64,000 nucleotides of DNA, taken from the NCBI GenBank assembly GCA_025450075.1, contig JANWIC010000008.1, positions 11,289 to 75,288 of the forward strand. The letters run 5' to 3'. This document shows positions 3,116-30,177 of the stretch, piece after piece (position 1 is the first letter of the stretch; each line of letters begins with the position of its first letter). A program made the position numbers and the translations under genes. Below the pieces are notes generated by a model. That model searched no databases. It was not told the DNA's origin and saw nothing but the letters and a program-made list of their open reading frames with translations. The stretch is from Patescibacteria group bacterium (GTDB lineage Bacteria; Patescibacteriota; Dojkabacteria; JAKAPS01).

Positions 3116-3183
3116 AGCATACATTATTACCATTAAAGCTCTATTTCGTTGTATATTATCCGATATAAAGATATAATGGGACA

Positions 3184-4236
3184 ATGCAAAGACAAAAAAC
3201 CGTTCTTCATTCACGTAATACAAGCGTCAACAATTCTACAATAGATGGGAATACGCTCTTTATTCAATTACGTGAAAAAATACGTGAAGAAGGAATATTT
3301 GATAGAGATTATCGCTATTATTCCATTCTTACCGTCATTATGGTCAGCGGCTTTATTTCATCAATTATCTTTCTGTTTCTGGTAAATAATCCCTTCCTTC
3401 TATTTTTTAGTTGCATCTTGTTTAGCTTTTTCTCAGTGCAGTTAGCAGGTATTGTACACGATGCAGGACATCGGGCAATATTTAGTTCAGCTCTTGCGAA
3501 TGATATTGCAGGATATATTTTTGGAATAATGCTTGGTTGGGCATATACACCTTGGAGGTCAGCACATAACAAGCATCATGCATATACAAATCAAAAAGAT
3601 AAAGATCCGGATTTAGAAGTACCTGTATTTACATTTACCACCGAACATTTTGATAAAAGAGGGAAAACACAACAATTCCTCATTAGATATCAAGTTTATT
3701 TGTATTTCCCATTCGGCTGCTTTGCTGCAGCTCTTATGAAAATCTCAGGATTTATCACATTGCTACATTCGGATAAGAAGAATAAACTCATAGAAGAAAT
3801 ATCAATTGGTCTAAGTCTTTTCATGTGGTATATTGCTCCGTTCTTTCTTTTTGGCATTGGAAAAGCATTGTTTATTATTATTGTCATTAACCTTGTCACC
3901 GGCTTTTATATCTTCAATATTTTTGCCCCAAACCATAAAGGGATGCCGCAATTATCCGCAGATAAGGAGATATCTTTTATGGAAAGACAAATTATGACTT
4001 CAAGAAATATTGTAGGAAGCTGGTTCAATGATATTTTGTATATGGGATTAAACTATCAGGTAGAGCACCATCTATTCCCATCTGTTGCAAGAAACAAATT
4101 AAAACTAACCTCCCCATATATCCTTCAAATTTGTCAACAAAGAAATATTGAATTCACCCGCGTTAGCATTTTAGAATCAAATAGAATCATTCTATCTGAA
4201 CTGAAGAATGTTTCTATGGCTATTTCAAAATTGTAG
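3184..4236 (+). CDS. Membrane fatty-acid desaturase (DesA-like)
   Basis: Three histidine boxes typical of membrane desaturases: 'HDAGHRAIF', 'HNKHHAYTN' and 'QVEHHLFP'. Multiple TM segments. Confidence 0.8.
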   Translation: MQRQKTVLHSRNTSVNNSTIDGNTLFIQLREKIREEGIFDRDYRYYSILTVIMVSGFISSIIFLFLVNNPFLLFFSCILFSFFSVQLAGIVHDAGHRAIFSSALANDIAGYIFGIMLGWAYTPWRSAHNKHHAYTNQKDKDPDLEVPVFTFTTEHFDKRGKTQQFLIRYQVYLYFPFGCFAAALMKISGFITLLHSDKKNKLIEEISIGLSLFMWYIAPFFLFGIGKALFIIIVINLVTGFYIFNIFAPNHKGMPQLSADKEISFMERQIMTSRNIVGSWFNDILYMGLNYQVEHHLFPSVARNKLKLTSPYILQICQQRNIEFTRVSILESNRIILSELKNVSMAISKL

Positions 4237-4301
4237 AGATCTCATATCAGATTTCCCTTCTCGCTAATCACCTATTGTCCGGCTAATAGAAGTGCTACAA
4301 T

Positions 4302-5231
4302 ATGGATGTATATCATCTACCCCACATGGACACTGTTATTCATGCTTCTCATCTCACTAAGCTATATGGCTCTAATGCAGCATTATCTGACTTGAATATT
4401 GATATACAAAAAGGAGAAGTATTTGGATATTTAGGCCCTAATGGCGCAGGAAAAACAACAACAATACGATTGCTTCTTGGCCTCATTAACCCGACAAGCG
4501 GAAGCGCGACAATTCTTGGAAATGATTGCCAAAAAGAAAAGTCGGAAGTACATACTCATATTGCGTATGTTCCAGGAGAATCAACTCTTTGGCCATATCT
4601 TACCGGAAAACAGACACTTCATTTACTTGGAAAAGTATACGGCAGGTATGATGAAGAATATATGCAAACCCTTATTGAAAAATTCCAATTTGACCCGAAT
4701 AAAAAAGTCAGAGCCTATTCGAAAGGAAACAGACAAAAAATAACCCTTATTGCAGCACTGATGACTCGAGCCGATATCCTCATCTTTGATGAACCGACTT
4801 CAGGACTTGATCCTTTGATGGAACAGGAATTTAGAAATTGCATAATAGAAGCCAAAGATCGTGGACAGACTATCTTTTTATCATCACATATTCTTGAAGA
4901 AGTACAGGCATTGTGCGACCGCATCGGCATCCTCAGGCAAGGAAAACTCATTGAAGTTGGGACATTAGCACAAATGAGACATCTTTCTGCCTTGCAAATT
5001 GAGGCAACATTTGCCACTACCCCTCCTGATATTTCTCAAATTGAAGGGGTCCATAACATTTCCATAAGCGGCAATATGTTGAAATGTAGCATGCAAGGGG
5101 ATATTTCAGTTCTTCTTGATGTCATATCCAAGGCAAAACCTAAGACATTCGTAAGTACAGAGCCATCATTAGAAGAACTATTCATGACCATTTATGGAAA
5201 CCATAGTAACAATTTAGAAAAACAATCATGA
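4302..5231 (+). CDS. ABC transporter ATP-binding protein
   Basis: Walker A 'GPNGAGKTT', signature 'YSKGNRQK' and Walker B 'ILIFDEPTSGLD'. Overlaps the downstream permease by 4 bp. The true start may be the internal Met 'MDTVIHASHL'. Confidence 0.85.
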   Translation: MDVYHLPHMDTVIHASHLTKLYGSNAALSDLNIDIQKGEVFGYLGPNGAGKTTTIRLLLGLINPTSGSATILGNDCQKEKSEVHTHIAYVPGESTLWPYLTGKQTLHLLGKVYGRYDEEYMQTLIEKFQFDPNKKVRAYSKGNRQKITLIAALMTRADILIFDEPTSGLDPLMEQEFRNCIIEAKDRGQTIFLSSHILEEVQALCDRIGILRQGKLIEVGTLAQMRHLSALQIEATFATTPPDISQIEGVHNISISGNMLKCSMQGDISVLLDVISKAKPKTFVSTEPSLEELFMTIYGNHSNNLEKQS

Positions 5232-6844
5232 AGACATTTCCCTCTTCAGCAAACACATCTTTCTGGTTTACTTTAACAAGATATATTCGAATATCGCTAT
5301 TCTGGGGATTAATCATTGGGTTTGTAGTTACAACAAATGCAATCGGAACAATTAAAGCAGGAATTAACTTAAACCAATTTGCCGCATCTTTGAGTACAAG
5401 CTCAGGGCTGTTTGCAATATTCGGGTCAGGCCATCAGCTTAACACAATAGAAGGATATGTAACATGGAAAGTATTGGGTCTTACTATGATCATCATGGCA
5501 ATATGGGGGTTGGTTATTTCAACAACTCTTTTTCGTGGAAATGAAGAATCAGGCAGAATTGAACTTATGGCTATAGGGAAAGCTAGCTTGAAAAGAATTA
5601 CAATAAATACACTTGCGGCAATCGCCGCTTGTATTGCAATAATTTTTATTATAGCATCTCTCATAACATATGCATCAGGTAATTCTAATGGATTACATTT
5701 TTCATTCGTAGGAAGCCTACTATTATCATTTGCATGCATTGCAAGCGCTATCATATTTGTTTCTCTTGGAGCTTTATGTGGACAATTATTCACAACAAGA
5801 CATCAAGCACTTTTTTATTGCGTTGCGACATTCGCCATTTTCTATATGGCAAAAATCGTTGCTGATTCATCAAACTCTTTTGCATGGCTAAACAATTTTA
5901 ATCCCTTAGGATGGATTGAAAATATTCAGCCATTTACCGGAAACTATGCAGTATGGATCCTACCTATTCTCGGATTTTCCTCCATACTTTCGGCTCTAGC
6001 AATATATTTTTCCGGGAAAAGGGATCTTGCATCTTCAATTGTAAAGAATAAGGAGACAACAACATCTTCATTTTTGTTTTTGAATAATATCGGTGAGTTC
6101 ATTACCCGCCAGCAAATCTTTTCATTTCTCGGTTGGGTGGTAGGAGTTGGAATTCTCGGATTCATATTTGGATCTGTCGTGAATGCAGGTGAAAATGCCC
6201 TAAGTTCATCACCAAACCTTACAAAAGAAATATCTAAACTCCATTTGTATTCTGGAGCAGATATTGTAAAGGCATTTATGGGATTTGGATTCCTCATTGG
6301 AATGGTACTGGTATCATTCATCGCAATAACAGGTATGACTAAATTGCAAAATGATGAAACATCGGGCTATCTTGACAACCTGTTTGTAAGAAGTGTCAAA
6401 CGTATGAATTGGATGGGATTATCTCTTGTCTTTACAGCTATTGAAATTGTCATAGTAGCATTATCATTAGGAGTACTTTCGTGGGTAGGAACACTTACTC
6501 AACATATTTCAATCGCAATATCTACTCTACTTGTTGCAGGAATAAACAGCACAGCGCCCGCACTTGCCATTTTAGGTATAGGTGCTTGTATATATGGTAT
6601 ATGGCCAAGAATAGCAACACGAGTACAATACTTCATTCTTGGATGGGGCATCCTCATTGATCTTATTGGTCCTTCAATTCATTTAAGTAATATTTTCCTC
6701 AACACATCCCTTTTCTATCATATGGCTCTCTCCCCTGGAGAAGATCCCAATTGGACAGTTGTCATTATTTTCACTCTCATCGGAATTATCGGCAGCATGA
6801 TTGGCATGTACCTTTTTTCCAAAAGAGATATACAATCAAGTTGA
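5228..6844 (+). CDS. ABC transporter permease (large polytopic, ABC-2 like)
   Basis: 538 aa and very hydrophobic with ~10-12 TM helices. Translationally coupled to the upstream ATPase (ATGA overlap). Confidence 0.7.
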   Translation: MKTFPSSANTSFWFTLTRYIRISLFWGLIIGFVVTTNAIGTIKAGINLNQFAASLSTSSGLFAIFGSGHQLNTIEGYVTWKVLGLTMIIMAIWGLVISTTLFRGNEESGRIELMAIGKASLKRITINTLAAIAACIAIIFIIASLITYASGNSNGLHFSFVGSLLLSFACIASAIIFVSLGALCGQLFTTRHQALFYCVATFAIFYMAKIVADSSNSFAWLNNFNPLGWIENIQPFTGNYAVWILPILGFSSILSALAIYFSGKRDLASSIVKNKETTTSSFLFLNNIGEFITRQQIFSFLGWVVGVGILGFIFGSVVNAGENALSSSPNLTKEISKLHLYSGADIVKAFMGFGFLIGMVLVSFIAITGMTKLQNDETSGYLDNLFVRSVKRMNWMGLSLVFTAIEIVIVALSLGVLSWVGTLTQHISIAISTLLVAGINSTAPALAILGIGACIYGIWPRIATRVQYFILGWGILIDLIGPSIHLSNIFLNTSLFYHMALSPGEDPNWTVVIIFTLIGIIGSMIGMYLFSKRDIQSS

Positions 6845-8449: not shown

Positions 8450-8701
8450 AAGACATCAGATAACGAGTTACATAAAGATACTCCTGATCTATTTCTTAGA
8501 GAAAATAATGGATATCTTCTACCTCTGTCACCTTCTGAACAGCAAGCTGTGCTTGATGCCTTAAAAGAGGGGAGATTAGATGTACCGTTATTACCTGTTG
8601 GAGCAACTCCAGTATTTTTTAGCTTGACTCGATTATTACAATATATGCCAGCTGATGTGATTGCTCCCCTTCAAATTTCAAAGAAATTGATTTTATCCTA
8701 G
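8450..8701 (+). pseudogene. Start-less open reading frame (84 codons) that overlaps and continues by a -1 shift into the 8764..9153 ORF; probable frameshifted/degraded N-terminal part of that gene
   Basis: A stop-free frame with protein-like sequence ('...LSPSEQQAVLDALKEGRLDVPLLPVGATPVFFSLTRLLQYMPADVIAPLQISKK...') runs from the TAA at 8447-8449 to the TAG at 8699-8701. The frame of the downstream ORF is open back to 8656 ('...NFKEIDFILATLTPDQQDTLKYL...'). No in-frame ATG/GTG start near the beginning. Confidence 0.35.
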
Positions 8702-8763
8702 CCACTTTAACACCTGATCAACAAGATACTCTCAAATATTTATCTGAAAATTCCGGAGATTTT

Positions 8764-9153
8764 GTGAGTATGAGACATGTAGGTGGATTACAAAAACTAC
8801 AAAGTTGGACAGGCAGAAGAATTTCGCCCGAGACGCTTGTTCATGGAATTGCAGACCTAAAGCGAATATTACCTGAAGGTATTATTACTGAGAACCCTAA
8901 TTCAACCTATCGTTTTAATGGATTACCAGAAGATATACATGAACTGAATGATGTTGCCCACCTCTCTGACAGGGAATTTACAAGAATTATCCGTTCACTA
9001 CTTCGTCTAAATATTTTTACCATTAGACAATTAGAATTTAGCTTGAAACTGGTTGAGGAGGGCCGAATAAGGATGAATGATATGGATGCACAAAAAAGAA
9101 GAATACTTACTAAAATGGTAGAGGAATACAGAAGTATAAATCCTAATCAGTAA
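8764..9153 (+). CDS. Hypothetical protein (possibly the surviving C-terminal part of a frameshifted larger gene)
   Basis: 129-aa ORF. Its frame stays open 108 nt upstream of the annotated ATG and overlaps the preceding start-less frame. Confidence 0.4.
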   Translation: MSMRHVGGLQKLQSWTGRRISPETLVHGIADLKRILPEGIITENPNSTYRFNGLPEDIHELNDVAHLSDREFTRIIRSLLRLNIFTIRQLEFSLKLVEEGRIRMNDMDAQKRRILTKMVEEYRSINPNQ

Positions 9154-9164
9154 AAATTTCCATA

Positions 9165-9971
9165 TTATTTAATCGGAAGATTAATCTCAAACTCAATTTG
9201 ATTCTCTTCATGAGTTGTATTGCGATAGAATTCAATATCAACAAATGGAAGGTTTGTATTTTGTATATATCCATTCTTCTTAGCGTATTTTTCTAATTCT
9301 TTCCATAAAAGTGATAAAAGACTTCCCGATCCTTTGTATGTATAACTTAATGCCTTAAACTCTGATATTGTTTCTTTTCTTACCATATGTTTATATTCTT
9401 CTTTTATCTCCATACCTTCTTCTACTACAACCCCGACTTTCATTCGTGATTTTGCAGGTCTATATCCAGAATCTAGAAAGATAGTTAAGAAAGATACCGT
9501 ATTTGGAAGTTTCACGAAGTAGGAAGCGAGTTCCTTATCATACTCTTTTATCTTTACATATGATCCGACTTTTTCAATATAATAGATTTCAAAATTGTAT
9601 ACGTTCTTTACTTCCGGCTTTACTAATATCCCGTTCTGGTCAAGACTATCAAAGAATTCATCGAGATGAGTAAGCGCCTCTTGTAGTTCATAAATTTCTC
9701 TTTCAATTCCTTTCCTTTTTGCCCTGAATAAATCGCGCATTGAATGATCTTTTGCGAGATATCCCTTTATCTCTTCAATTGAAAAATTAAGCTTTCGAAG
9801 AAGAAGTATCGCCTGGAAATCAAGTATCTGTTCAGGAAGATACAATCTGTACCCATTTGTATCAATATGATCCGGCTTCAGTATCCCCATTCTATCGTAC
9901 CATACGACGGTTCTTTTTGTTGTACTGGCAAGCTTTGCAAACTCTCCGGCTGTAATATATTCTTTCCCCAT
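9165..9971 (-). CDS. MerR-family transcriptional regulator with C-terminal GyrI-like/BmrR-type effector-binding domain
   Basis: N-terminal MerR HTH 'EYITAGEFAKLASTTKRTVVWYDRMGILKPDHIDTNGYRLY' followed by a coiled-coil and a ~150-aa GyrI-like domain. I trimmed the start to ATG 9971 ('MGKEY'), because the longer ORF in the track would overlap the divergent uvrA-like gene. Confidence 0.7.
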   Translation of the reverse strand: MGKEYITAGEFAKLASTTKRTVVWYDRMGILKPDHIDTNGYRLYLPEQILDFQAILLLRKLNFSIEEIKGYLAKDHSMRDLFRAKRKGIEREIYELQEALTHLDEFFDSLDQNGILVKPEVKNVYNFEIYYIEKVGSYVKIKEYDKELASYFVKLPNTVSFLTIFLDSGYRPAKSRMKVGVVVEEGMEIKEEYKHMVRKETISEFKALSYTYKGSGSLLSLLWKELEKYAKKNGYIQNTNLPFVDIEFYRNTTHEENQIEFEINLPIK

Positions 9972-9972
9972 A

Positions 9973-10003
9973 TTGACTACAACGTTACGTCGTACAATAT
10001 TAT
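9973..10003 (+). promoter_or_regulatory. MerR-type promoter: -35 TTGACT (9973-9978), 19-bp spacer containing the dyad TACGtCGTA, -10 TATTAT (9998-10003); drives the class II uvrA-like gene
   Basis: Hexamers and spacing read directly from the sequence. The suboptimal 19-bp spacer is the hallmark of MerR-activated promoters, and the divergent regulator is MerR-type. Confidence 0.5.
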
Positions 10004-10020
10004 ACTCATACTTCATCAAT

Positions 10021-12261
10021 ATGGCAACAATGAATAATATCGTCATAAAAGGGGCGAAAGAGAATAACTTAAAAAATATTGACCTGATGATCCCCCGAAA
10101 TAGCATAGTATGCTTTGTCGGAGTATCCGGATCCGGAAAATCAACTATTGCCTTTGACATAATTGCAAAAGAAGGGCAAAGGCAATACTTTGAATCCTTA
10201 AGCTCCTTTGCCAGAAGATATCTCCAAAAAAGCAACGCTCCGGACGTCGATCTGATCCAAGGGATCTCATCAACTATTATTATTGACCAGGAACGGGTAA
10301 GGAATAGTCCTCGATCAACAGTTGGAACCCTGACCGAAAGCTATACCTATTTGCGGATGCTCTTTTCTCGTGTCGGACTTCCGAGTATGGATTCATCCTT
10401 TTTCTCGTTTAACCATCCCAATGGTGCTTGCAGAGAATGTAAAGGCCTTGGTCGGGCAATTGAAATTGATGTGAATAAGATTGTTGATATGGAGAAGAGC
10501 TTGTCACAAGGGGCGCTTCTCCCATCAGACTGGTATGTAGGAGGAAGACAATGGAAAATTATAAAAGCGACGGGGTATTTTGATATGGATAAGAAAGTGA
10601 AAGATTTTAGCGAAGAAGAATTGCAAACACTTCTCTATCATCCAAAGACTCTTTTTGAAGATGACGAACGTTATGGAGCAAACAGATGGACCTATCAAGG
10701 AATTATCTCCCGGCTTAAAGAAAGGAATTCCAAGGTTCACCGAAGTAACCCACAAAGAGACCTTGGCTATTATACCTCAACAGATTGTCCAACATGCCAC
10801 GGAGGAAGATTACATGAAAAAGCATTATCAGTAAAGATTAATGGGAAGAATATTGGCGAAGTTGCAAATATGTCCATTATTGAGTGCCTGGAATTTGTGA
10901 GAACGATTGACCATCCGCATAGCGAGGCAATTAAACCTCGCCTCATTGAACAGCTCACTGCCCTCATCAATGTCGGCGTTGGATATCTAAGCCTGAATAG
11001 GTCATCTGAGACTTTATCCGGTGGTGAAGCACAAAGAATTAAATTTGCACGACAGCTTGGGTGTGATCTTGTTGAGACAATTTATGTTCTGGATGAACCA
11101 ACCGCTGGATTGCATCCACGGGACGTGGATATGGTCATACAAAACTTAAGAGCATTAAAGGAAAAAGGCAACTCCGTTTTAGTTGTTGAGCATGATAAGG
11201 CTATTATTGAGCAGGCAGATCATATTATCGAAATTGGCCCGGGAGGCGGCGCACAAGGAGGCCAAGTTATTGCCCAAGGGACATTTAATGATATTCTGAT
11301 AACTTCTACCTCACGAATTGCACCCTATCTGCAGGAAAGCTTGAATAATACGCCCCATGCTACAAGAAAACCAACAGGCAGTATTTCTATGAGTCATGCA
11401 AAACGTCATAACCTGAAAGATATCAGCCTCGATATCCCTACAGGAATATTAGTAACTCTTACCGGAGTATCAGGATCAGGCAAGAGTTCTTTAGTAGAAG
11501 AAATGATGGATCGATTTGGTAATTCAATTGTGCTTGTTGACCAAAGCCCTGTAGGAAATTTTAAGCGAGGATGTATAGGAACTTATACAGGATCATTTGA
11601 TATTATCCGAAAAATATTTGCAAAAGAGCATGGTATGTCAGAAAGCTTTTTTAGCTTTAATGCCCATGGAGCGTGTGAAGCATGCCATGGGTTAGGATTT
11701 ATTGATATGGACATGAACTTTTTAGGAAATGTGAAGATATATTGTGAAGCATGTCATAAAAGCAGGTACAAGGAAAAAGTATTGCAATATGAGTATAAAG
11801 GGAAAAATATCGCAGAGGTTCTGAAGATGACGGCAGATGAAATAAAAGAATTTTTCAAAAATGATGCTTTGCAAGAAAAGATGGATCTACTTATTGAAGT
11901 AGGACTTGATTATATCGAAATAGGGCAAACGCTTGATACACTATCCGGAGGAGAATCACAAAGACTAAAACTTGCAAGCCGATTGCAGGCAAAAGGCGAG
12001 TTCTATATCTTAGATGAACCTACCTCTGGGCTTCATTGTGCAGATATCGAAAAGCTCATGAAACTATTAAACCGGTTGGTTGATAACGGAAACACAGTTT
12101 TAGTAGTGGAGCATAATCTTGAAGTAATCAAGTCAGCAGATTGGATCATCGACCTTGGCCCGGAAGGCGGAAATAAAGGAGGATATATCGTGGCGCAAGG
12201 AACTCCCTATGATATTGCAAAAAATGAAGCATCTCCCACGGGGAAGTACTTATCTCTATAA
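10021..12261 (+). CDS. Class II UvrA-like tandem ABC ATPase (UvrA2/DrrC/Ecm16 family) lacking the UvrB-binding domain
   Basis: Two ABC cassettes (Walker A 'GVSGSGKST' and 'GVSGSGKSS'; signatures 'LSGGEAQR' and 'LSGGESQR'). The first cassette goes directly from 'FSRVGLPSMDSSF' to 'FSFNHPNGACRECKGLG' with no intervening ~110-aa UvrB-binding domain or first zinc module. Total ~747 aa versus ~940 aa for canonical UvrA. The C-terminal Zn module 'CEACHGLG...CEACHKSRY' is present. I set the start at ATG 10021, because the TTG at 9973 used by the ORF track coincides with the -35 box. Confidence 0.8.
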   Translation: MATMNNIVIKGAKENNLKNIDLMIPRNSIVCFVGVSGSGKSTIAFDIIAKEGQRQYFESLSSFARRYLQKSNAPDVDLIQGISSTIIIDQERVRNSPRSTVGTLTESYTYLRMLFSRVGLPSMDSSFFSFNHPNGACRECKGLGRAIEIDVNKIVDMEKSLSQGALLPSDWYVGGRQWKIIKATGYFDMDKKVKDFSEEELQTLLYHPKTLFEDDERYGANRWTYQGIISRLKERNSKVHRSNPQRDLGYYTSTDCPTCHGGRLHEKALSVKINGKNIGEVANMSIIECLEFVRTIDHPHSEAIKPRLIEQLTALINVGVGYLSLNRSSETLSGGEAQRIKFARQLGCDLVETIYVLDEPTAGLHPRDVDMVIQNLRALKEKGNSVLVVEHDKAIIEQADHIIEIGPGGGAQGGQVIAQGTFNDILITSTSRIAPYLQESLNNTPHATRKPTGSISMSHAKRHNLKDISLDIPTGILVTLTGVSGSGKSSLVEEMMDRFGNSIVLVDQSPVGNFKRGCIGTYTGSFDIIRKIFAKEHGMSESFFSFNAHGACEACHGLGFIDMDMNFLGNVKIYCEACHKSRYKEKVLQYEYKGKNIAEVLKMTADEIKEFFKNDALQEKMDLLIEVGLDYIEIGQTLDTLSGGESQRLKLASRLQAKGEFYILDEPTSGLHCADIEKLMKLLNRLVDNGNTVLVVEHNLEVIKSADWIIDLGPEGGNKGGYIVAQGTPYDIAKNEASPTGKYLSL

Positions 12262-12340
12262 TTTCTTTCCCCTATGCCAGCCATGGCAATGCATAAGAGT
12301 TTCTAAGAGCCTACAATGCTGCATGTCTATCTAAAAAGAT

Positions 12341-13888
12341 ATGGAGCATGATCCAATTAAATCCACAATGGAGAGGAAAGTACACCAATCACTTACCATC
12401 CTCAATAACATACAAACTCCTGAAATCGAAGGAACCGATTCACATGGCCGCTTCATTTATGGTCCCGATTGGACACTTGAATCACTCCAGACATGGGTTG
12501 GATCTCATCAAGAGCTATTAGATCCCTATCTTCCGATAGAAGATGGGAAGGGAAATATCCAATGGATAAACGATGAAGGCAATCCAATCGAGCGAAGCGT
12601 TGCATCTGAGCGAAGATGGATCGATTACTATTTCGCAACGGTTGCACTCAAAAGACCGGAATATGTTGCATATATACAAGAATTGACAAACTCAGATCAT
12701 ATGGGTGCAATGCATGCTGACTGCAGGGCATGCGTTGCCATACCTTCATGGCTTGAAGGGAAAAATATATACAATCTGCTTTGCACATATACGCAACAAA
12801 AAGATGCAACAGGTAGAAGCATTGATCCCAATCTCTATGAAATTGCCATTATTATTAACAGGAAGAAAGGGACCGAGCCTGATGAAACAGACGGAGAAAT
12901 ACAACGCTTCATGAAAGATACAAATTACCAGTATAATATCAAATATATTGATGTTGAACTTCCCTCCCCTTTTAATAATGTAGGGACCGCAAGAAAAATT
13001 TTAACAGATGTTTTATTATATCGATCATCCCATCGATCATCCCAACCCTCTCCGCTCTACATACTCTCGGAAGATGCAGATCTTACCGGAGTAGACCCGT
13101 CTACCATATCAAAAACAATAGAAGTATTTGATGCAAGACCTGAAGTATGCGCATTAGTTGGTATACAGGATCGAACACCTGAGATATTACAGCAAAATGA
13201 TCTTCTTTTTTTGTATGCACGCTTTAAAGATTTTAGACAAATTGTTCTTCGACATTCCACTCACCTCTTCTCAGGCTTTGAAGAGATGCAATTCAGGTTT
13301 GGAAGTCCAGTAACCGGTGGATGGAACAGTTCATTCAGAGCTGAGGAATTAGCCCATATCGGTGGATATGACCCTGTCCGGATTCGTGAAGATCTCGTCA
13401 TTGGTGAAAGGATAAGAATGATCCATGGAAATAGTAAGAATGAAAATCCACATGTTGTTGCAAGGATTCCCATTCGATCAGACTCTTCACCCCGACGATT
13501 CATTCTTGCTCTATTTGAGGATATGCATGCATATAATGATTCCTTTTCAGATGAAGTGTATAACAAAGATTTAAAGACACAACCAGTTGAAAAACTTTTA
13601 GAATTAATACAGCCCTTTGTAAGAATTGAAGATAACCCCGGAAAATTTGAAGAAATGTTTACCGTCCAATATCTGTCCCTGCTCGACCTTCATTGTCCAA
13701 GTGATATTGCAATTGATATTTTTCATAAAATTATGTGGGGATTAGGGTTTCACCGATCTGATTATGATATTGAAGATGATCATATAATACTTCGCAATAC
13801 TTCCCGGATACAATGCCTTTTAGATAGATATCGAAGAAGACACCAATGTTATTCTACTGAAGATCTCTTCACTAGAAATTCTGAATAA
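12341..13888 (+). CDS. Hypothetical protein with a GT-A fold (family 2) glycosyltransferase-like core and a ~170-aa N-terminal extension
   Basis: 'LYILSEDADL' (DxD-like) and 'GGWNSSFRAEELAHIGGYDPVRIREDLVIGERIRM' match the GT2 'GG...GGfd...EDxdl..R' pattern. Local GC appears higher than in the neighbours. Confidence 0.4.
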   Translation: MEHDPIKSTMERKVHQSLTILNNIQTPEIEGTDSHGRFIYGPDWTLESLQTWVGSHQELLDPYLPIEDGKGNIQWINDEGNPIERSVASERRWIDYYFATVALKRPEYVAYIQELTNSDHMGAMHADCRACVAIPSWLEGKNIYNLLCTYTQQKDATGRSIDPNLYEIAIIINRKKGTEPDETDGEIQRFMKDTNYQYNIKYIDVELPSPFNNVGTARKILTDVLLYRSSHRSSQPSPLYILSEDADLTGVDPSTISKTIEVFDARPEVCALVGIQDRTPEILQQNDLLFLYARFKDFRQIVLRHSTHLFSGFEEMQFRFGSPVTGGWNSSFRAEELAHIGGYDPVRIREDLVIGERIRMIHGNSKNENPHVVARIPIRSDSSPRRFILALFEDMHAYNDSFSDEVYNKDLKTQPVEKLLELIQPFVRIEDNPGKFEEMFTVQYLSLLDLHCPSDIAIDIFHKIMWGLGFHRSDYDIEDDHIILRNTSRIQCLLDRYRRRHQCYSTEDLFTRNSE

Positions 13889-13925
13889 AACAGATATAAT
13901 ACGATAAGTATTTCAAAACTTTCAG

Positions 13926-14624
13926 ATGAAATCAAAATATGAAATCCATCCAGTACAATCTGATATCCTTGTCTATCTATTATTCCATAACAATTCACGA
14001 TTTTCAGAAATTAATGTAAATAAACTTGATACAGATAGTTTCAACTTCCACCTAAAGAGCCTTCTTGAAGCTGGGCTTATCGAAAAGAAAGATACGACTT
14101 ACTCTCTTACATTAAAGGGAAAAGAATTTGCAAACCGATTTGATACAAACATTTCACAAATTGAAAAACAAGCTAAACTTGGTGTCGTGCTTATCTGCAC
14201 AAAGAAAGAACAGGATCATACCCTTTACCTAATGCAACAACGTCTTAAACATCCCTTTTATGGATATAACGGATTTATCACAGGAAAGATCACCTGGGGA
14301 GAAACGGTTAATGAAACAGCAACACGAGAACTTCAAGAAGAAACAAATCTTACCGGAACTATATCCCTTGCAGGCATTGAGCATAAGATGGATTACTCGG
14401 ATCAAAGCCAATTACTGGAAGATAAATTCTTTTATGTTTGTAAAATAACAGATATAAAAGGAACTTTACATGAACAATTCCAAGGAGGAAGAAATTTCTG
14501 GGTAGAAAAACAGGAAATTGAAAAGATGGACAATTTGTTTGACGACGTATTGTTCTTGATCGAAATGATTGAGACAAACACCCTAACATTTCAAGAACAA
14601 AAATTTATTGTAAAAGGATTTTAA
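13926..14624 (+). CDS. Nudix hydrolase with N-terminal winged-HTH domain
   Basis: Nudix box 'GKITWGETVNETATRELQEETNL' (GX5EX7REUXEEXGU). N-terminal ~75 aa resemble a wHTH. Confidence 0.7.
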   Translation: MKSKYEIHPVQSDILVYLLFHNNSRFSEINVNKLDTDSFNFHLKSLLEAGLIEKKDTTYSLTLKGKEFANRFDTNISQIEKQAKLGVVLICTKKEQDHTLYLMQQRLKHPFYGYNGFITGKITWGETVNETATRELQEETNLTGTISLAGIEHKMDYSDQSQLLEDKFFYVCKITDIKGTLHEQFQGGRNFWVEKQEIEKMDNLFDDVLFLIEMIETNTLTFQEQKFIVKGF

Positions 14625-14676
14625 GAAACTACACCAAATCATTATCTTTTAGAAGAGATAACTACAATGCCCTCAT

Positions 14677-15330
14677 TCACGCTCTTTGGCAGTTGTTTAT
14701 TAATTGAGAAAGGTTTGTATTACCATGTAGGAAAAAGCCATTCATGACACATGGTGCGAAGTCATGCAGACGAACAATGGCAATAAAGGATAATCCAAGA
14801 AAGATAATAATAATGCTAAATATTGTCTTCATGCTTATCACTTTTTCTTTATGGATGTATCTTTGTATCAAAGGATATACATTCACAATTATAGCAAGTG
14901 CAGGAAGGACTAATAACCATATGCGAAGGATAGTGCCATTATATAGAAATGTATTATTCATTGTACTAAGCGCAGCGTTATTCGGATGAGATAAATTTCC
15001 TTGAATTAATCTTGATACGAAATCAACAGATAAAGCAAAAAGAAATGGAAAAAGGAAAATTCCTCCCATCATGTTATATACACTTATTTGGATTTTCCCT
15101 GATGATATATTTGCCATATATTGTTGCGGGTTAAAATATGAAATGCTTGAAGCATTCGTCTTTATAATATCTCCAAGAAGTGAGAACCAAAAATTAACTG
15201 AATGCTTGTTGTTATCGGCATACATGTCATGAAATATTAAAATTAGATCATCTTCAAAAGACTGGCGAAATGATCTTGGATAAAAACGTAAAAACATCCT
15301 ATATATTTTTTCAGCATTTTGTTTTGTCAT
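14677..15330 (-). CDS. PadR-associated membrane protein (hypothetical)
   Basis: Overlaps the upstream PadR gene by 4 bp. Hydrophobic C-terminal half. Confidence 0.45.
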   Translation of the reverse strand: MTKQNAEKIYRMFLRFYPRSFRQSFEDDLILIFHDMYADNNKHSVNFWFSLLGDIIKTNASSISYFNPQQYMANISSGKIQISVYNMMGGIFLFPFLFALSVDFVSRLIQGNLSHPNNAALSTMNNTFLYNGTILRIWLLVLPALAIIVNVYPLIQRYIHKEKVISMKTIFSIIIIFLGLSFIAIVRLHDFAPCVMNGFFLHGNTNLSQLINNCQRA

Positions 15331-15872: not shown

Positions 15873-18116
15873 ATGGATTTAATCAGCACCATAATTATTA
15901 TATTGTTATTATTGTGTATTGTTGTAATTGTTACCTTAGTTGCAAAAAGGCTATTATTTGTTGAAAGAGTAAGGACAATTCTTTCCAAGAAAACCCAAAA
16001 GGTATTTTTAATCAAGATACATCCTTCTAATGAGAAAAAGGAGAATGTATTTGAAGCTTTGCTAAAGACACTTCATGATGTATTACCACATCATACATAT
16101 ATTAGCTTAGAACTTGTCTGCTCAAACCAGTTCATGCATTTTTATGTAACTGCTCCAATTGAGTATGCTTCCTTACTTACTTCACAACTATATTCGCAAT
16201 TTCCTGATGTCGAAATCGAAGAAACTAATGATTACGCGTCTCTACTAAATCCTTATCTTATTGAAATCGCAAATAAAGGGAAAACACCTTTCAAAACATA
16301 TAAAGATGGATTGGAAGATATATTAAAAGGTATTTCTGCAATTTTATCAACAACATCACAAAATGAAGAAATTTTTCTTCAACTTATACTTTCACCCAAT
16401 GGAAGTAAATTTTGGGAAAAGGGGATTAATCATGTATGGGAGAGCATTACTGACCACTCTGAACAAAACAAAATTAATCAAGAAACATTTAGGGGGAAAT
16501 TAATTATTGGATATGCGGCTCAAAATTCTTTAGTGGCAAAGAAGAAAGTGACTACTGTGATTAGACTTTTAAAACAGACAAAATATCCGCATAATGAATT
16601 AAAAGTAAAAAAATTCAATTTTTTTTCAGATATTGCAGTTTTATGGAAATCGAGGACATTTGAATATGGAGATATATGGACAGAAGCAGAAATTGCTTCG
16701 ATTTACCATTTTCCTTATAAAGGGAGTATTACTTCAAATGTTATTCATACCGACTCAAAAAAAGCTCCTGCTCCAGATATACTACCTCTTCAAGGAGATG
16801 ATATATCATTTTTTGGAGAAACAAATTACCATAATGAATTTAAGAAATTTGGAATTAAAAGAATAGATCGAAGACGTCACATGTATGTTGTTGGGAAAAC
16901 TGGATCTGGAAAAAGCAGACTTTTACAATTATTGTTAATTGCTGATATCCAGAATAATCAAGGATGCTGTCTTATCGACCCTCATGGTGACCTTGCACAA
17001 CAAGTACTAACTTATGTTCCAAAAGAAAGAATAAAAGATGTCGTATACATTGACCCTTCAGATAAGGACTTCCCTATTGGGTTCAATCCTCTCGAAAGTA
17101 CACAGGATTTTGAAACAAAACAACATCTTTCAACTTTTTTCATTGCAATATTCAAAAAGCTTTTTGGATACAATTGGAATCCTCGAATGGAACACCTTGT
17201 AAGGTATATTACTCTAGCTCTTCTTGAAACTTCAGATTCGAACATTCTTGGAATATCAAGAATGTTAACAGACACCGCTTTTAGACAAAGAGTAATTAAG
17301 CAGATCCAAGATCCGGTAATCAAGAATTTTTGGACAAACGAATTTCCAGGTTGGATCGAAAAGTATGCAAATGAAGCAGTGATACCTATTATGAATAAAG
17401 TTGGGCAATTCATTGCAAACCCAATGATTCGTAATATGGTTGGACAAAATAAAAACACCTTAGATTTCGAGAGATTTATGGATGAAGGGAAAATTGTTAT
17501 TATTAATTTATCAAAAGGGAAACTTGGAGAAGAAAATACAGCTTTCTTAGGTTCTATGTTCATCACCAAAATACAACAAGCAGCATTAAGCAGGTCCAGA
17601 ATACCTGAAGAAGCACGTAAAGATTTCTATTTTTATGTAGATGAATTCCAGAACTTTGCTACAGATGCATTTTCATCAATTCTTTCTGAGGCACGTAAAT
17701 ATCACCTTAACCTAACCATTGCTCATCAATATATTGCACAGTTACCTGACGATATCAAAGCAACCGCATTTGGAAATGTTGGGTCATTAGTAACTTTTAG
17801 TGTCGGTGGAGATGATGCAAGCTATCTTGGAAAAGAATTTAGTCCTATCTTTACTCCTGATGATTTAATTTCACTCAATACTCGTGAGATGTACATAAAA
17901 TTATCAGTAAATGGAAAACTTACTCCTCCATTTTCTGCAAGAACTATTGAAATACCTTCTACTTCTACAAATTATACAATTGAAATTTTGGAGCATTCTA
18001 GGATTACTTATGGAAAGAATAGAATTGCTGTAGAAAATGAAATTCAGAGGTGGACAAGTAGTGTTGAATTTCAAAGTGATAATGCCTCTGAGACTTTTCC
18101 CGAACCGATTATCTAA
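15873..18116 (+). CDS. Membrane-anchored VirD4/TraD-like (FtsK-HerA superfamily, TraG/DUF87-type) ATPase
   Basis: N-terminal TM helix 'IIIILLLLCIVVIVTLV'. Walker A 'YVVGKTGSGKSRLLQLLL' followed by 'CLIDPHGDLA' (coupling-protein signature). Walker B 'YFYVDEFQNF'. Confidence 0.65.
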   Translation: MDLISTIIIILLLLCIVVIVTLVAKRLLFVERVRTILSKKTQKVFLIKIHPSNEKKENVFEALLKTLHDVLPHHTYISLELVCSNQFMHFYVTAPIEYASLLTSQLYSQFPDVEIEETNDYASLLNPYLIEIANKGKTPFKTYKDGLEDILKGISAILSTTSQNEEIFLQLILSPNGSKFWEKGINHVWESITDHSEQNKINQETFRGKLIIGYAAQNSLVAKKKVTTVIRLLKQTKYPHNELKVKKFNFFSDIAVLWKSRTFEYGDIWTEAEIASIYHFPYKGSITSNVIHTDSKKAPAPDILPLQGDDISFFGETNYHNEFKKFGIKRIDRRRHMYVVGKTGSGKSRLLQLLLIADIQNNQGCCLIDPHGDLAQQVLTYVPKERIKDVVYIDPSDKDFPIGFNPLESTQDFETKQHLSTFFIAIFKKLFGYNWNPRMEHLVRYITLALLETSDSNILGISRMLTDTAFRQRVIKQIQDPVIKNFWTNEFPGWIEKYANEAVIPIMNKVGQFIANPMIRNMVGQNKNTLDFERFMDEGKIVIINLSKGKLGEENTAFLGSMFITKIQQAALSRSRIPEEARKDFYFYVDEFQNFATDAFSSILSEARKYHLNLTIAHQYIAQLPDDIKATAFGNVGSLVTFSVGGDDASYLGKEFSPIFTPDDLISLNTREMYIKLSVNGKLTPPFSARTIEIPSTSTNYTIEILEHSRITYGKNRIAVENEIQRWTSSVEFQSDNASETFPEPII

Positions 18117-28674: not shown

Positions 28675-30177
28675 TTAGATACGAGTCTGTTCAAATGAAA
28701 TGATTTTGTTATGGTAAGCATATACCGGTAAAAGGAGAAGATTTGTAAATGCAGAGAGTAAATGTAAAGTTGCAAATGAAGCAAGTATATATCGGTAACA
28801 TACTTTCAAATCATAAAAGTCTTCGTCATACATTTCTTTTTTTGTAATAGTATATAATTTTGTAATTGTTTTGTAGCATTGCAGCATTTGTTTCTTTTTG
28901 AAATAAATGGAAATCAATCTTCTGAGAATAAACTTGTTTTCAGGAGACTCTTTTAATACATCTTTATACAATCCCAATGCAGTTTTTTCATGGTCTGTTC
29001 TTTCAGCGAATAAGGCTTCTGCGAGTAGATAATTATCCTTATGTTTTACTTTTTCCTTAATTTCTTTAAGAAGCAGTTTTCCTTTTTCTTCATCTTTTTC
29101 TTTTGCTAGCATCCCAATTGCATAAATATATGAATGGTCAATGGCATTTTTATCAATCCTTTCATCCTTTTCTATAATTTTATTAAGTATTTCACTCCTT
29201 TTTACTAAAACATCTGCTGCTTCTTTAAACTTTTCTTTTGATTCTTGGATTTTTCCTCTTTCAATGAACAGATAATTACCGTAATGATGGAGGTTCTTTG
29301 CTTTAATAAAATACAACATCTCTTCAATTTTCATGAAATCCAAATCGCCAAACTGTACACTTTCATCATCAGATTTATACAGCATATCTAAATTATGCAG
29401 TACTTCATTAATGAGTTTATCAGCAGCAGGATAATTCTTTTTATGGACAAATTTTGCTGCAGTATAGATAAGGCCGATATATGTTACCTCATGCAATACT
29501 TTATTCAATCCATGGTTTGGTCTTCCATCTACATAAAATTCAAATTTTGTTTTTTTTGCAAGATGTTCTTTAATTTCATCAAAAAGAAGTATCGGTAATT
29601 CATGAACAAAGATAAATTGTGGATGGATAACTAAAGCATTTGCTTCATTGTATAAAGTTCCTGTTATTAGAAAATCCAAAAACTGGAATCGCCTAGGTGA
29701 ATATGTATGGTATCTATCAATTGCATACCTGGGGGGAAGAACTATAGCATTAATATATTCACCTATATTTACATAACGATTATCATGGATCAAATGAGAA
29801 TAGATATATTGATTCAATTCTTCACGTATCGTAATACGAGCCTCACCTGGCAAAACACTTTTCATATTTATATCAACCAAATCAAATTGGGAAATACCGA
29901 TATTTGTTTTGTTTTTGCTTGTAAAAATATGCCTGTCAAATACCCAAGCAAGGATCGTTATCCCAATGATAATAAGATAAAATCGTAAAAAATTACCATC
30001 GGGAGGGGCTTTTGGATCAACATATACAATATGGCTGTAAAAAATGCTGAATGCGTAATTATATAGAATTGTTTCTACAAAAAGCAGAACAAGTAATGAA
30101 AGTACCGTACCTTTTTCGCTTCTATAGAATCTTTTTATCTCATCAATAATGACAAGAATATCAAATGGCATCCACAT
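28675..30177 (-). CDS. Hypothetical membrane-anchored protein with a helical-repeat (TPR-like) region
   Basis: N-terminal TM helices, then ~350 aa of Lys/Glu-rich helical repeats. Confidence 0.35.
   Translation of the reverse strand: MWMPFDILVIIDEIKRFYRSEKGTVLSLLVLLFVETILYNYAFSIFYSHIVYVDPKAPPDGNFLRFYLIIIGITILAWVFDRHIFTSKNKTNIGISQFDLVDINMKSVLPGEARITIREELNQYIYSHLIHDNRYVNIGEYINAIVLPPRYAIDRYHTYSPRRFQFLDFLITGTLYNEANALVIHPQFIFVHELPILLFDEIKEHLAKKTKFEFYVDGRPNHGLNKVLHEVTYIGLIYTAAKFVHKKNYPAADKLINEVLHNLDMLYKSDDESVQFGDLDFMKIEEMLYFIKAKNLHHYGNYLFIERGKIQESKEKFKEAADVLVKRSEILNKIIEKDERIDKNAIDHSYIYAIGMLAKEKDEEKGKLLLKEIKEKVKHKDNYLLAEALFAERTDHEKTALGLYKDVLKESPENKFILRRLISIYFKKKQMLQCYKTITKLYTITKKEMYDEDFYDLKVCYRYILASFATLHLLSAFTNLLLLPVYAYHNKIISFEQTRI

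Follow-up and report, generated by a model that had tools for sequence, protein, structure and literature searches.

The locus considered here lies within a 64-kb window, the whole stretch of DNA that was analysed, out of an 81-kb contig. It consists of two divergently transcribed genes, one for a MerR-family regulator and one for a UvrA-like protein (hereafter UvrA2), separated by a gap of 49 bp (9972-10020) that contains the uvrA2 promoter and a predicted operator (Table 1). The public annotation of the contig gives the regulator 283 aa with a start at 10016 (P0121), which would put its coding sequence through the promoter; the orthologues listed are mostly 260-275 aa long, many of them exactly 265 aa, and their consensus has its first residue at the 9971 start. 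For UvrA2, an alternative in-frame ATG at 10030 would yield a protein of 743 aa and matches the N-termini of the orthologues better.

Table 1. Features of the regulator-uvrA2 locus (positions in the window)
Feature	Position	Strand	Description
Regulator gene	9165..9971	-	MerR family, GyrI-like sensor domain at the C-terminus; 268 aa and a stop codon
GyrI-like small-molecule-binding domain	9168..9617	-	Residues 119-268; Pfam PF06445, above cutoff
Winged helix-turn-helix DNA-binding domain	9753..9953	-	Residues 7-73; Pfam MerR_1
-35 hexamer of the uvrA2 promoter	9973..9978	+	TTGACT; TTGAC invariant in 15 genuine sites of candidate-phyla-radiation (CPR) bacteria
Predicted operator dyad	9977..9995	.	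CTACAACGT-T-ACGTCGTAC; 9+1+9, imperfect, 7/9 pairs, centre 9986
Spacer of the uvrA2 promoter	9979..9997	+	19 bp at every CPR site; defines the MerR-type suboptimal spacing
Palindrome TACGtCGTA	9986..9994	.	Perfect 4+1+4 inside the spacer; centre 9990, position 18
-10 hexamer of the uvrA2 promoter	9998..10003	+	TATTAT; TATTAT/TATAAT in most CPR sites
Regulator promoter candidate	9999..10027	-	TTGCCA 10027-10022, 17-bp spacer, TATAAT 10004-9999
UvrA-like gene	10021..12261	+	Class II UvrA (without UvrB-binding domain); 746 aa
Junction	10372..10398	+	Residues 118-126, VGLPSMDSS; site of zinc module 1 and UvrB-binding domain in class I UvrA
Zinc module 2 cysteines flanking the insertion domain	10429-10440, 10786-10797	+	CREC and CPTC; CxxC positions
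Insertion (DNA-binding) domain	10456..10782	+	Residues 146-254; Pfam UvrA_DNA-bind (PF17755) at residues 150-237

A UvrA without the UvrB-binding domain

The original prediction that this UvrA is of the type devoid of the UvrB-binding domain (class II) was confirmed by alignment to class I UvrAs and to the class II proteins Ecm16 and Deinococcus radiodurans UvrA2 (DrUvrA2). In phmmer comparisons with the PDB, residues 4-120 correspond to residues 1-117 of T. maritima UvrA, after which the alignment jumps to residue 256, that is, over ~138 residues; the break is identical with the UvrAs of B. stearothermophilus and C. thermocellum, and the alignment with DrUvrA2 (2vf7) runs continuously over the junction (query 7-495). 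In a 33-sequence alignment, residues 100-145 of the window protein (46 residues) stand against 179-194 residues in class I UvrAs, and the boundaries of the junction are identical to those in class II proteins from Firmicutes and Muribaculaceae. What is missing is zinc module 1 together with the UvrB-binding domain of ~140 aa: only four CxxC motifs are left (residues 137, 256, 552 and 575), accounting for zinc modules 2 and 3, and zinc module 1 has no CxxC pair in the protein. The precomputed Pfam lists of its homologues, likewise, contain PF17755 and never the UvrB-interaction domain. The remainder of the protein comprises two complete ABC ATPase modules, as judged from the motifs of the first and second sites: Walker A GVSGSGKS (34/482), LSGGE (332/641), Walker B (354/661), DEPT (358/665) and VEH (about 387-389 / 694-696).

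When considering the function of such a protein, one possibility is that UvrA2 is the working excision-repair UvrA of the organism, shortened, induced by damage and handing over to UvrB in another way. Indeed, class I UvrAs give the highest scores (8e-198 for UvrA, as compared to 1.6e-177 for Ecm16 and 9e-161 for DrUvrA2 in the PDB search; 662 bits for T. maritima UvrA vs 595 for Ecm16), and the NCBIfam uvra profile TIGR00630 matches in three stretches with 798 bits, over its cutoff. However, the cutoff of the PRK00349 equivalog is not reached (816 vs 1147), and the loss takes in the entire UvrB-binding domain along with zinc module 1, with boundaries shared by the other class II proteins. The insertion domain, too, is 39.7% identical to that of Firmicutes class II proteins vs 20.6% to that of class I, which makes it the region that best discriminates between the UvrA classes. 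Furthermore, no second uvrA is detectable across the whole 64-kb window, neither uvrB nor uvrC was found among the 10 scanned ORFs of at least 481 aa, and Ecm16 cannot complement uvrA (PMC9328131). Hence, an excision-repair role for UvrA2 seems very unlikely.

By every sequence feature that can be tested, UvrA2 belongs to class II (more precisely, IIa) as defined in PMC9328131 (citing Marszalkowska 2013) and PMC10192343. In Foldseek comparisons, the AF2 model of the protein matches UvrA with a TM of 0.84 and Ecm16 with a target-normalised TM of 0.87. The CPR UvrA2 proteins form a clade of their own, and since they are about equally similar to class I UvrAs (42-45% identity) and to other class II proteins (42-46%), the function of Ecm16 is not transferable to them by close orthology.

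The regulator and its operator

The MerR_1 match in the regulator (1.3e-12) is accompanied by matches to the Pfam families MerR and MerR-DNA-bind, and the GyrI-like match (1.7e-7) covers the C-terminal part; between the two domains, the AF2 secondary structure places the long dimerisation helix at residues 78-113. The closest sequence in the PDB is EcmrR (5.4e-13), which is 268 aa long as well. With the AF2 model (pLDDT 91.6), Foldseek retrieves BrlR (7.7e-17), EcmrR (7.7e-16) and BmrR (5.4e-14) for the full-length protein, and CtaZ, the C-terminal domain of EcmrR, SbmC/GyrI, CTR107 with rhodamine 6G and the C-domain of BrlR for the GyrI-like domain, with target-normalised TM values of 0.65-0.80; STM3175 is a further drug-binding protein matched by this domain. 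The modelled structure thus indicates that the regulator is a MerR protein with a genuine GyrI-like fold, of the BmrR type as had been proposed from the sequence; Pfam finds no TipAS domain (PF07739) in it. Three residues, W223, Y229 and E247, are invariant across the orthologues, and Y138, F152, F165, Y170, H212, Y249 and E262 are kept in at least 90% of the sequences. There is no cysteine among the invariant residues, nor a conserved redox cluster or metal-binding cysteines.

The predicted MerR promoter, TTGACT-N19-TATTAT, is indeed present upstream of uvrA2 and occurs once in the 64-kb window, as compared to 0.03 occurrences expected from shuffled sequences. Its 19-bp spacer is invariant over about 40 related loci (15 CPR sites, one additional chance match having been set aside, and 27 metagenome sites); in a metagenome search with a pattern that did not include the -10 hexamer, TAnnnT was found exactly 19 bp past the -35 hexamer in 110 of the 120 sites. 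The conservation of the spacer and of the dyad within it persists even though the orthologues share only 38-47% (regulator) and 59-66% (UvrA2) identity.

The regulator is predicted to bind, as a dimer, to the dyad CTACAACGT-T-ACGTCGTAC. This dyad reaches into the last bases of the -35 hexamer, and its centre falls at position 14.0 from the first T of this hexamer, the same position 14 as in the EcmrR test promoter on which in vitro transcription and cryo-EM were carried out (sequence in PMC8113463). Across the family, the dyad follows the consensus cTATAACGT-N-ACGTTATAg. Between 5 and 8 of the 9 pairs form at the 15 CPR sites, among which the window operator has diverged furthest, differing from the 23-nt consensus at three positions. 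Its half-sites are TACAACGT and ACGTCGTA, and both share a T-to-C change (TACAACGT and TACGACGT vs TATAACGT). An operator of the class TTGACT-ATrACGTnACGTnATAg-N2-TAnnnT, with the 19-bp spacer, is found at the uvrA2-paired loci and also, in the same geometry, at 66 further metagenome loci, where it lies ahead of MerR genes; this shows that the sequence is a MerR-family binding site. A Pfam check of four of these 66 genes identified three as MerR+TipAS and one as MerR without TipAS.

The original prediction had placed the operator elsewhere, at the palindrome TACGtCGTA. The palindrome does exist, being a perfect 4+1+4 repeat within the spacer, but it is not the conserved operator: it is centred at 9990 (position 18, not 14) and not at 9986, it is missing from all 14 orthologous sites, it reaches a score of 5 of 10 when extended, and a MerR dimer needs a longer site, published operators spanning ~20 bp (PMC8113463). 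Comparison with the orthologous sites identifies it as a by-product of window-specific substitutions in the right half-site of the conserved dyad, so that its being the binding site of the regulator is highly improbable.

The candidate promoter of the regulator itself is the top promoter-like match (11/12) in a scan of 8700-14700, and a minus-strand site of at least 11/12 is found at the equivalent place in 27 of 41 CPR loci, as compared to 4 of 8200 random positions. The -10 hexamers of the two divergent promoters overlap, and the predicted transcription start of the regulator falls within the right arm of the operator.

Linkage of the two genes and the proposed mechanism

The linkage of the two genes is strict. 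A divergent MerR/GyrI gene precedes uvrA2 in all 13 CPR genome loci for which the upstream flank is available, and the same pair is found in 27 metagenome loci and in locus L170. Another locus (L025) has an additional gene between the regulator and uvrA2; there, the promoter/operator exists in duplicate in its entirety, leaving uvrA2 with a copy of its own. No further conserved neighbour was found around the pair in the related loci. In some loci, a recurrent protein of ~250 aa, without assigned function, is encoded under the same operator.

Such a module had been expected to be unusual for a small AT-rich genome. This expectation did not hold: each partner is represented by well over 100 CPR protein clusters, with the pair syntenic wherever the flank is available, and the cassette is thus common in CPR. 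The sampled class II uvrA genes from outside CPR have no MerR linkage and no such operator; elsewhere, class II uvrA genes adjoin regulators of other types, namely YafY, MarR and TetR. Each component of the cassette is of a known kind; of their pairing, no published description was found.

PADLOC assigns MADS profiles to both proteins (mad3, 2.3e-81, and mad8, 1.1e-37, on UvrA2; mad1, 1e-8, on the regulator), which could suggest that the pair is part of a MADS-type anti-phage defence system. However, MAD6-8 are mandatory in MADS, which also includes a methyltransferase (mad2), and no such genes flank the pair in the window or in about 40 related loci. Having been derived from HHpred alignments with homologues in the PDB, these profiles act as generic ATPase/HTH profiles. 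A defence system of this kind is, in our view, extremely improbable here.

We consider it likely that the pair is a self-contained sensor-effector cassette, in which the regulator switches UvrA2 on in response to a ligand and so provides inducible protection from DNA-binding toxins. MerR proteins bind pseudo-palindromes in 19-20-bp spacers and, upon binding of the ligand, kink and under-twist them (PMC8113463, PMC9909328). By the same logic, a MerR/GyrI-like dimer would sit on the predicted operator, over the end of the -35 hexamer and filling the 19-bp spacer, and, as long as the ligand is missing, the over-long spacer would hold uvrA2 off. The bound dimer would also cover the -10 hexamer and the start site of the regulator's divergent promoter with its 17-bp spacer, so that the regulator would be expected to repress itself. 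The ligand entering the GyrI-like pocket would be a small DNA-active xenobiotic, probably planar or cationic; the ligand-bound dimer would kink and under-twist the spacer, and the realigned -35 and -10 hexamers could then be read by a sigma-70-type RNA polymerase, turning uvrA2 on with a transcript leader that would be very short or absent.

The induced UvrA2 would be an ATP-driven, DNA-scanning dimer without a docking site for UvrB. Ecm16 confers echinomycin resistance in the absence of UvrA, UvrB, UvrC or UvrD, with both the ATPase activity and the insertion domain being needed (PMC9328131, PMC10192343). UvrA2 may similarly recognise drug-distorted DNA and relieve toxicity without the rest of the excision machinery. 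The proposed role in resistance to DNA-binding drugs is drawn by analogy from the biology of Ecm16 and DrrC and from the class of ligands of GyrI-like domains.

It can also be envisaged that the signal perceived by the regulator is endogenous or one of general stress (redox, a second messenger or a metabolite), and that UvrA2 handles endogenous lesions or stalled complexes, or contributes to mutagenesis. GyrI-like MerR proteins can respond to c-di-GMP or pyocyanin as well (BrlR structure entries), and BrlR, the top structural match of the window regulator, binds both. Class II UvrAs of non-producers have been linked to minor UV repair or stationary-phase mutagenesis, the respective knock-outs in D. 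radiodurans, Xanthomonas and P. putida having a weak UV phenotype or none and a role in mutagenesis having been proposed (PMC9328131); the YafY, MarR and TetR regulators beside class II uvrA genes elsewhere would fit such a role, too. Still, the ligands of the solved GyrI-like structures are exogenous planar or cationic drugs, the operator class otherwise serves antibiotic-sensing regulators of the TipAS type (three of the four genes checked), and the cysteines that redox or metal sensing might use are not conserved in the regulator. An endogenous signal therefore appears unlikely, although it is by far the more serious of the alternatives considered.

CPR bacteria have few detoxification options. 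Going beyond the ligand-inducible cassette, we tentatively suggest, as a possibility that falls somewhat short of an even chance, that the pair is a dedicated, mobile two-gene unit of CPR, in which a GyrI-like MerR protein, acting at a TipA/Mta-type operator, senses DNA-binding products of neighbours or hosts and induces a UvrB-independent UvrA to clear the DNA. If true, this would be the first natural class II UvrA wired directly to a xenobiotic sensor. The long-open question of the targets of class II UvrAs would then become directly testable, with the regulator and its promoter serving as a ligand reporter, and the recurrent ~250-aa protein would represent a further, uncharacterised component of resistance.

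Comparison with known systems

Ecm16 of S. lasalocidi, DrrC of S. peucetius and UvrA2 of D. radiodurans have, like the window UvrA2, two ABC ATPase modules, an insertion domain and zinc modules 2 and 3, and lack zinc module 1 and the UvrB-binding domain at the same junction; some of the CPR UvrA2 orthologues are publicly labelled 'daunorubicin resistance protein DrrC'. Yet, the window UvrA2 is only 36-37% identical to these proteins in structural alignment, and its gene lies outside any antibiotic biosynthetic cluster. The CPR uvrA2 is paired with a dedicated MerR sensor, a partner that every sampled class II gene from outside CPR lacks.

The regulator shares with the multidrug sensors BmrR of B. 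subtilis, EcmrR of E. coli and BrlR of P. aeruginosa the winged helix-turn-helix, the coiled-coil helix, the GyrI-like domain and the overall length, and the promoter logic is the same, with a 19-bp spacer and a dyad centred at position 14. The sequence identity to these proteins is, however, about 20%, and the window operator is unrelated in sequence to the BmrR/EcmrR site ACCCTCCCCTaAGGGGAGGGT. Whereas the targets of BmrR, BltR and BrlR are efflux transporters (reviewed in PMC9909328), the output gene of the window regulator encodes a DNA-scanning ATPase.

With the autoregulated TipAL/Mta class (MerR + TipAS), the window shares the class of operator and promoter, including the 19-bp spacer. 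The tipA and mta operators have an ACGT-N-ACGT core as well. Unlike in TipAL/Mta, the sensor in the window is GyrI-like rather than TipAS, and the regulator is encoded divergently from the promoter under control, not downstream of it.

The divergent, overlapping PmerR/PmerT architecture is well known from the mer operon. As in the mer region of Tn501/Tn21, the overlapping divergent promoters of the window combine a regulated 19-bp spacer with a spacer of about 17 bp for the regulator's own promoter, and, in both systems, the position of the operator should let the regulator, once bound, govern the structural gene and also keep down its own expression. The window locus differs from mer in having an organic-ligand sensor rather than a metal-binding site, a single effector gene and another operator sequence.

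The divergent regulator-uvrA2 pair and the class of UvrA2

The two genes are arranged back to back and are separated by 49 bp (see the table). In the regulator, Pfam assigns residues 7-73 to a MerR winged helix-turn-helix and residues 119-268 to a GyrI-like domain of the kind that binds small molecules; the GyrI-like, BmrR-type C-terminus of the original reading is corroborated by Pfam, by sequence matches in the PDB and by Foldseek. Among solved structures, EcmrR, which likewise has 268 aa, is the top sequence match (5.4e-13 over nearly the full length), followed by BrlR and BmrR. An AF2 model based on 67 orthologues (pLDDT 91.6) has BrlR, EcmrR and BmrR as its top full-length Foldseek matches, with a further full-length match to STM3175; its domain-level matches are CtaZ, SbmC/GyrI and CTR107, all of them drug-binding GyrI-like proteins, CTR107 with rhodamine 6G bound. 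In the C-terminal domain, W223, Y229 and E247 are invariant and Y138, F152, F165, Y170, H212, Y249 and E262 nearly so; judged from sequence conservation, these aromatic and acidic residues fit a putative ligand pocket.

The public annotation of the contig places the regulator start 15 codons earlier, at 10016, which yields a protein of 283 aa (P0121). With this start, the coding sequence would cross the conserved promoter/operator (window 9972-10016) and reach to within 4 nt of the uvrA2 ATG. Most of the orthologues listed are 260-275 aa long, many having precisely 265 aa, and the 9971 start coincides with the beginning of their consensus; hence, we take 9971 as the start of the regulator. For uvrA2, an alternative in-frame ATG at 10030 (MNNIVIKGA...) fits the orthologue N-termini better than the one at 10021, and either of the two may be the start (window 10021-10032).

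Features of the window around the regulator-uvrA2 pair and elsewhere
Feature	Position	Strand	Basis or remark
Regulator, MerR + GyrI-like, 268 aa	9165-9971	minus	Pfam
-35 of uvrA2, TTGACT	9973-9978	plus	read from sequence
Operator dyad, CTACAACGT-T-ACGTCGTAC	9977-9995		centre 9986; 7/9 pairs
19-bp spacer	9979-9997	plus	
Palindrome TACGtCGTA	9986-9994		inside operator right arm; centre at position 18.0, numbered from the -35
-10 of uvrA2, TATTAT	9998-10003	plus	
Candidate regulator promoter, TTGCCA, 17-bp spacer, TATAAT	10027-10022 and 10004-9999	minus	11/12
UvrA-like ATPase (uvrA2), 746 aa	10021-12261	plus	
515-aa ORF	12341-13888	plus	80 bp downstream of uvrA2
HTH-NUDIX fusion	13926-14624		two genes downstream of uvrA2
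HerA-like DUF87 ATPase	15873-18116		weak PADLOC HerA matches
Large ORFs lacking a Pfam domain	5228-6844, 28675-30177, 30220-32292, 55808-57391		

In alignments with solved structures, UvrA2 matches residues 1-117 of T. maritima UvrA, the next aligned residue being 256, and the identical break is seen with the UvrA proteins of B. stearothermophilus and C. thermocellum; the alignment with D. radiodurans UvrA2 runs across this junction with no break. When 33 UvrA sequences from related loci are aligned, the segment from query residue 100 to 145 has a length of 46 residues both here and in every orthologue from the candidate phyla radiation (CPR), as well as in the class II proteins of Firmicutes and Muribaculaceae; it is 47 residues long in Allorhizocola, 73 in the Arthrobacter group, and 179-194 in class I proteins. 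Of the CxxC motifs, four are left, those of zinc modules 2 and 3 (residues 137, 256, 552 and 575). The jump from 117 to 256, the 46-residue segment and the CxxC count bear out the class II assignment of the original prediction; by its sequence, UvrA2 is a class IIa protein as defined in the literature, namely one that has lost the first zinc finger and the UvrB-binding domain (PMC9328131, PMC10192343). The Walker A, Walker B, signature and H-loop motifs are each intact in both copies. It is unlikely that this protein is a canonical excision-repair UvrA, given that the UvrB-binding domain is missing. A tblastn search of the window found no second uvrA, the matches being ordinary ABC ATPases only, and no Uvr domain indicative of uvrB or uvrC was found among the 10 ORFs of at least 481 aa that were scanned.

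The insertion domain (PF17755), which in Ecm16 sets the substrate specificity (PMC10192343), is present and shows 40% identity to that of Firmicutes class II proteins versus 21% to class I. This pattern indicates that the deletion was inherited in common with the other class II proteins rather than having arisen independently. A neighbour-joining tree places the CPR proteins in a clade of their own that adjoins the Firmicutes class II. The AF2 model of UvrA2 (pLDDT 78) reaches TM scores of up to 0.84-0.87 to UvrA-family structures; as expected, since the two classes have the same core, Foldseek does not tell them apart. Three longer homologues (P0089, P0091 and P0120) were considered as class I intermediates and rejected, as all three are of class II and carry terminal extensions.

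PADLOC matches to mad3, mad8 and mad1 raised the possibility of a MADS-type phage defence. These profiles were built from PDB homologues; hence, mad3 and mad8 (2e-81 and 1e-37 on UvrA2) strongly match any UvrA-like ATPase and are likely to give rise to false calls of defence systems. As, moreover, the mandatory partners and the methyltransferase are absent, the defence reading was rejected.

The promoter and operator between the genes

The exact pattern TTGACT-N19-TATTAT occurs once in the 64-kb window against 0.03 expected from shuffles. The intergenic regions of the CPR loci align gap-free from the -35 through the -10 element, with TTGAC invariant and a spacer of 19 bp in every case, so that the promoter with a MerR-type 19-bp spacer, as originally read, stands. 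The spacer contains a dyad, cTATAACGT-N-ACGTTATAg (9+1+9), in which 5-8 of the 9 positions pair and which overlaps the final two bases of the -35. Compared with the consensus TATAACGT, both window half-sites, TACAACGT and TACGACGT, carry a T-to-C change; since the change is identical in the two, the dyad symmetry is kept. With the initial T of the -35 as position 1, the centre of the conserved dyad falls at 14.0. The promoter on which activation by EcmrR was demonstrated, TTGACC-N19-TAGATT, carries a perfect palindrome (PMC8113463, Methods), whose centre, as computed here, is likewise at exactly 14.0. The smaller palindrome TACGtCGTA, which had been proposed as the dyad of the regulator, is indeed present but is not the operator: it is a product of window-specific changes in the right arm, occurs in no other locus, and its centre departs from the conserved one.

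In a WWE3 genome (L025), an extra gene lies between the regulator and uvrA2, and the whole promoter/operator is present twice (at 2280 and 3091), once before each gene, which is strong evidence that this element functions as a unit linked to uvrA2. The inserted gene (L025 2325-3086, the same as in L106) encodes a protein of ~250 aa whose family also occupies this position in L063 and L167; it has the conserved motifs RLNH, PMLEF and GVVSGINxHxD and no match in Pfam or PDB, and it may belong to the regulon as a further component. The L025 uvrA2 (3132-6049) is interrupted by a frameshift, with a 415-aa ORF after which the similarity continues in another frame; the gene is a pseudogene or the assembly is in error here.

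On the minus strand, the candidate promoter of the regulator is the best promoter-like match in a scan of 8700-14700, and an equivalent scoring at least 11/12 is found in 27 of 41 CPR loci as compared to 4 of 8200 random positions. Its -10 overlaps the -10 of uvrA2, and the predicted transcription start, near 9992, falls in the right arm of the operator; therefore, a bound dimer should repress the regulator gene. The mer operon is arranged in the same way. On the plus strand, the uvrA2 transcript is predicted to start near 10010. The uvrA2 ATG follows the -10 by only 7-9 nt at roughly half of the orthologous loci, and at many the distance is within 7-11 nt, so that the transcripts there are predicted to be leaderless; at others, uvrA2 has a leader of 28-31 nt that contains the -35 of the divergent regulator promoter. 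The loci concerned include L005, L006, L008, L026, L060, L102, L112, L117 and L124.

Distribution of the module and its proposed function

Homologues of UvrA2 form more than 120 clusters (63-73% identity, ~746 aa), some of which already bear the label DrrC, and those of the regulator form 150 clusters at E <= 1e-10. For many members of the two sets, the contigs are of matching length. All organism-level names are CPR, namely, for UvrA2, Roizman-, Gottesman-, Beckwith-, Ames- and Parcubacteria, or Patescibacteria generally, and the GC content of 33-38% is consistent with a CPR origin. The module is, therefore, ordinary for the lineage, contrary to the original expectation that it would be unusual in such a genome. 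Among the 49 genome loci retrieved with UvrA2, the divergent regulator is present in all 13 CPR loci that retain an upstream flank (L001-L009, L011, L025, L026, L040). Near the class II loci of Firmicutes, Bacteroidota and Actinobacteria, neither tblastn nor inspection of upstream ORFs with Pfam found the regulator, and a fuzzy motif scan found no operator at non-CPR class II uvrA loci. In L170, where gene calls are present, a MerR/GyrI gene adjoins UvrA2 amid unrelated genes. No other recurrent neighbour of the window pair was found except a sporadic HTH-NUDIX gene; a homologue of the window's HTH-NUDIX fusion adjoins the module in L009 (47% identical) and, weakly, in L025, and in none of the metagenome loci. 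The 515-aa ORF next to uvrA2 has no match in Pfam, NCBIfam or PADLOC and no homologue in any related locus. A terminator scan between uvrA2 and this gene found no terminator-like site, and the two may be co-transcribed in this genome only. Scans of window 1-64000 found no tRNA genes or Rfam families.

MerR proteins bind pseudo-palindromes in 19-20-bp spacers and, when bound to a ligand, make the -35 and -10 readable by kinking and under-twisting the DNA (PMC8113463, PMC9909328). By this precedent, the regulator would, in the absence of a ligand, keep uvrA2 off and repress its own gene, and the binding of a small molecule, probably a DNA-active, planar or cationic compound, in the GyrI-like pocket would switch it to activation of uvrA2. 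UvrA2, by analogy with Ecm16, would then recognise the drug-distorted DNA and relieve the toxicity alone, with no docking surface for UvrB; Ecm16 confers echinomycin resistance independently of UvrA, UvrB, UvrC and UvrD, requiring ATP hydrolysis and the insertion domain (PMC9328131, PMC10192343). The regulatory link from the regulator to uvrA2 is well supported by the anatomy of the locus and its conservation and is very probably real; the kind of ligand proposed and a protective role of UvrA2 are plausible and somewhat favoured.

Class II UvrA proteins are widespread: in the plasmid collection alone, class II-like genes are found on 902 records, all at less than 60% identity. Often, they lie beside a one-component regulator of another family, such as a divergent YafY in S. 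xylosus, a MarR in C. tagluense and a TetR in Roseivivax. It is possible, accordingly, that the regulator senses a general stress signal and that UvrA2 has a role in repair or mutagenesis. This possibility is also compatible with the binding of c-di-GMP by BrlR and with the weak phenotypes of class II UvrA knock-outs in non-producers (PMC9328131). The hard-wiring of UvrA2 to a small-molecule sensor throughout the CPR leads us to read it as an inducible response to a chemical signal, and we argue that, at least in this lineage, it is not a housekeeping repair factor. Such a response suggests that these organisms with reduced genomes are under real selective pressure from DNA-targeting metabolites.

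The families of the individual components are known, and some orthologues are annotated as DrrC or MerR; within the searchable library, no paper was found that connects a UvrA paralogue with a MerR/GyrI-like regulator or describes the module in the CPR. In the module, a MerR multidrug-type switch has a class II UvrA as its probable output. Outside a few antibiotic producers, the substrates and the physiological role of class II UvrA proteins are unknown (PMC9328131), and the interest of the module lies mainly in offering a practical route to these substrates: the regulator-promoter pair is compact and portable and could serve to find inducing compounds.

The operator class and its relation to known MerR systems

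Public metagenomes were scanned for TTGACWATRACGTNACGTNATA, a pattern that leaves out the -10, which returned at least 120 loci. Among the 120 matches listed, TAnnnT lies exactly 19 bp past the -35 in 110. The CPR MerR/UvrA2 module accounts for 27 of these 120 listed matches. In 66 (L051-L169), the element lies directly upstream of a same-strand MerR-family gene, typically of ~245 aa; one has partial MerR matches on both sides, and 25 either lie before other genes or offer too little sequence for classification. One more (L134) combines a CPR-type regulator with a cation-diffusion transporter in place of uvrA2: this MerR/GyrI regulator, 45% identical, has the same operator with a poor -10 (TATACC) and faces the cation-diffusion-facilitator gene. 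Of four same-strand MerR genes analysed with Pfam, three encode MerR with a TipAS antibiotic-recognition domain and one MerR with no TipAS; other downstream genes checked include an MFS transporter, a DUF2268 (protease-like) protein and an alpha/beta-hydrolase.

Taken with the tipA and mta operators, which also have an ACGT-N-ACGT core, these metagenome data make the operator and its promoter with a 19-bp spacer look like the signature of a widespread regulon of the Mta/TipA type. The operators of BmrR and EcmrR themselves are quite different in sequence from the CPR operator. With the operator shared and the sensor GyrI-like, the CPR regulator can therefore be described as a TipA/Mta-type operator specificity joined to a sensor domain of the BmrR/EcmrR type, so that the locus illustrates the modular evolution of the MerR family, in which one operator class serves two unrelated sensor domains, TipAS and GyrI-like.
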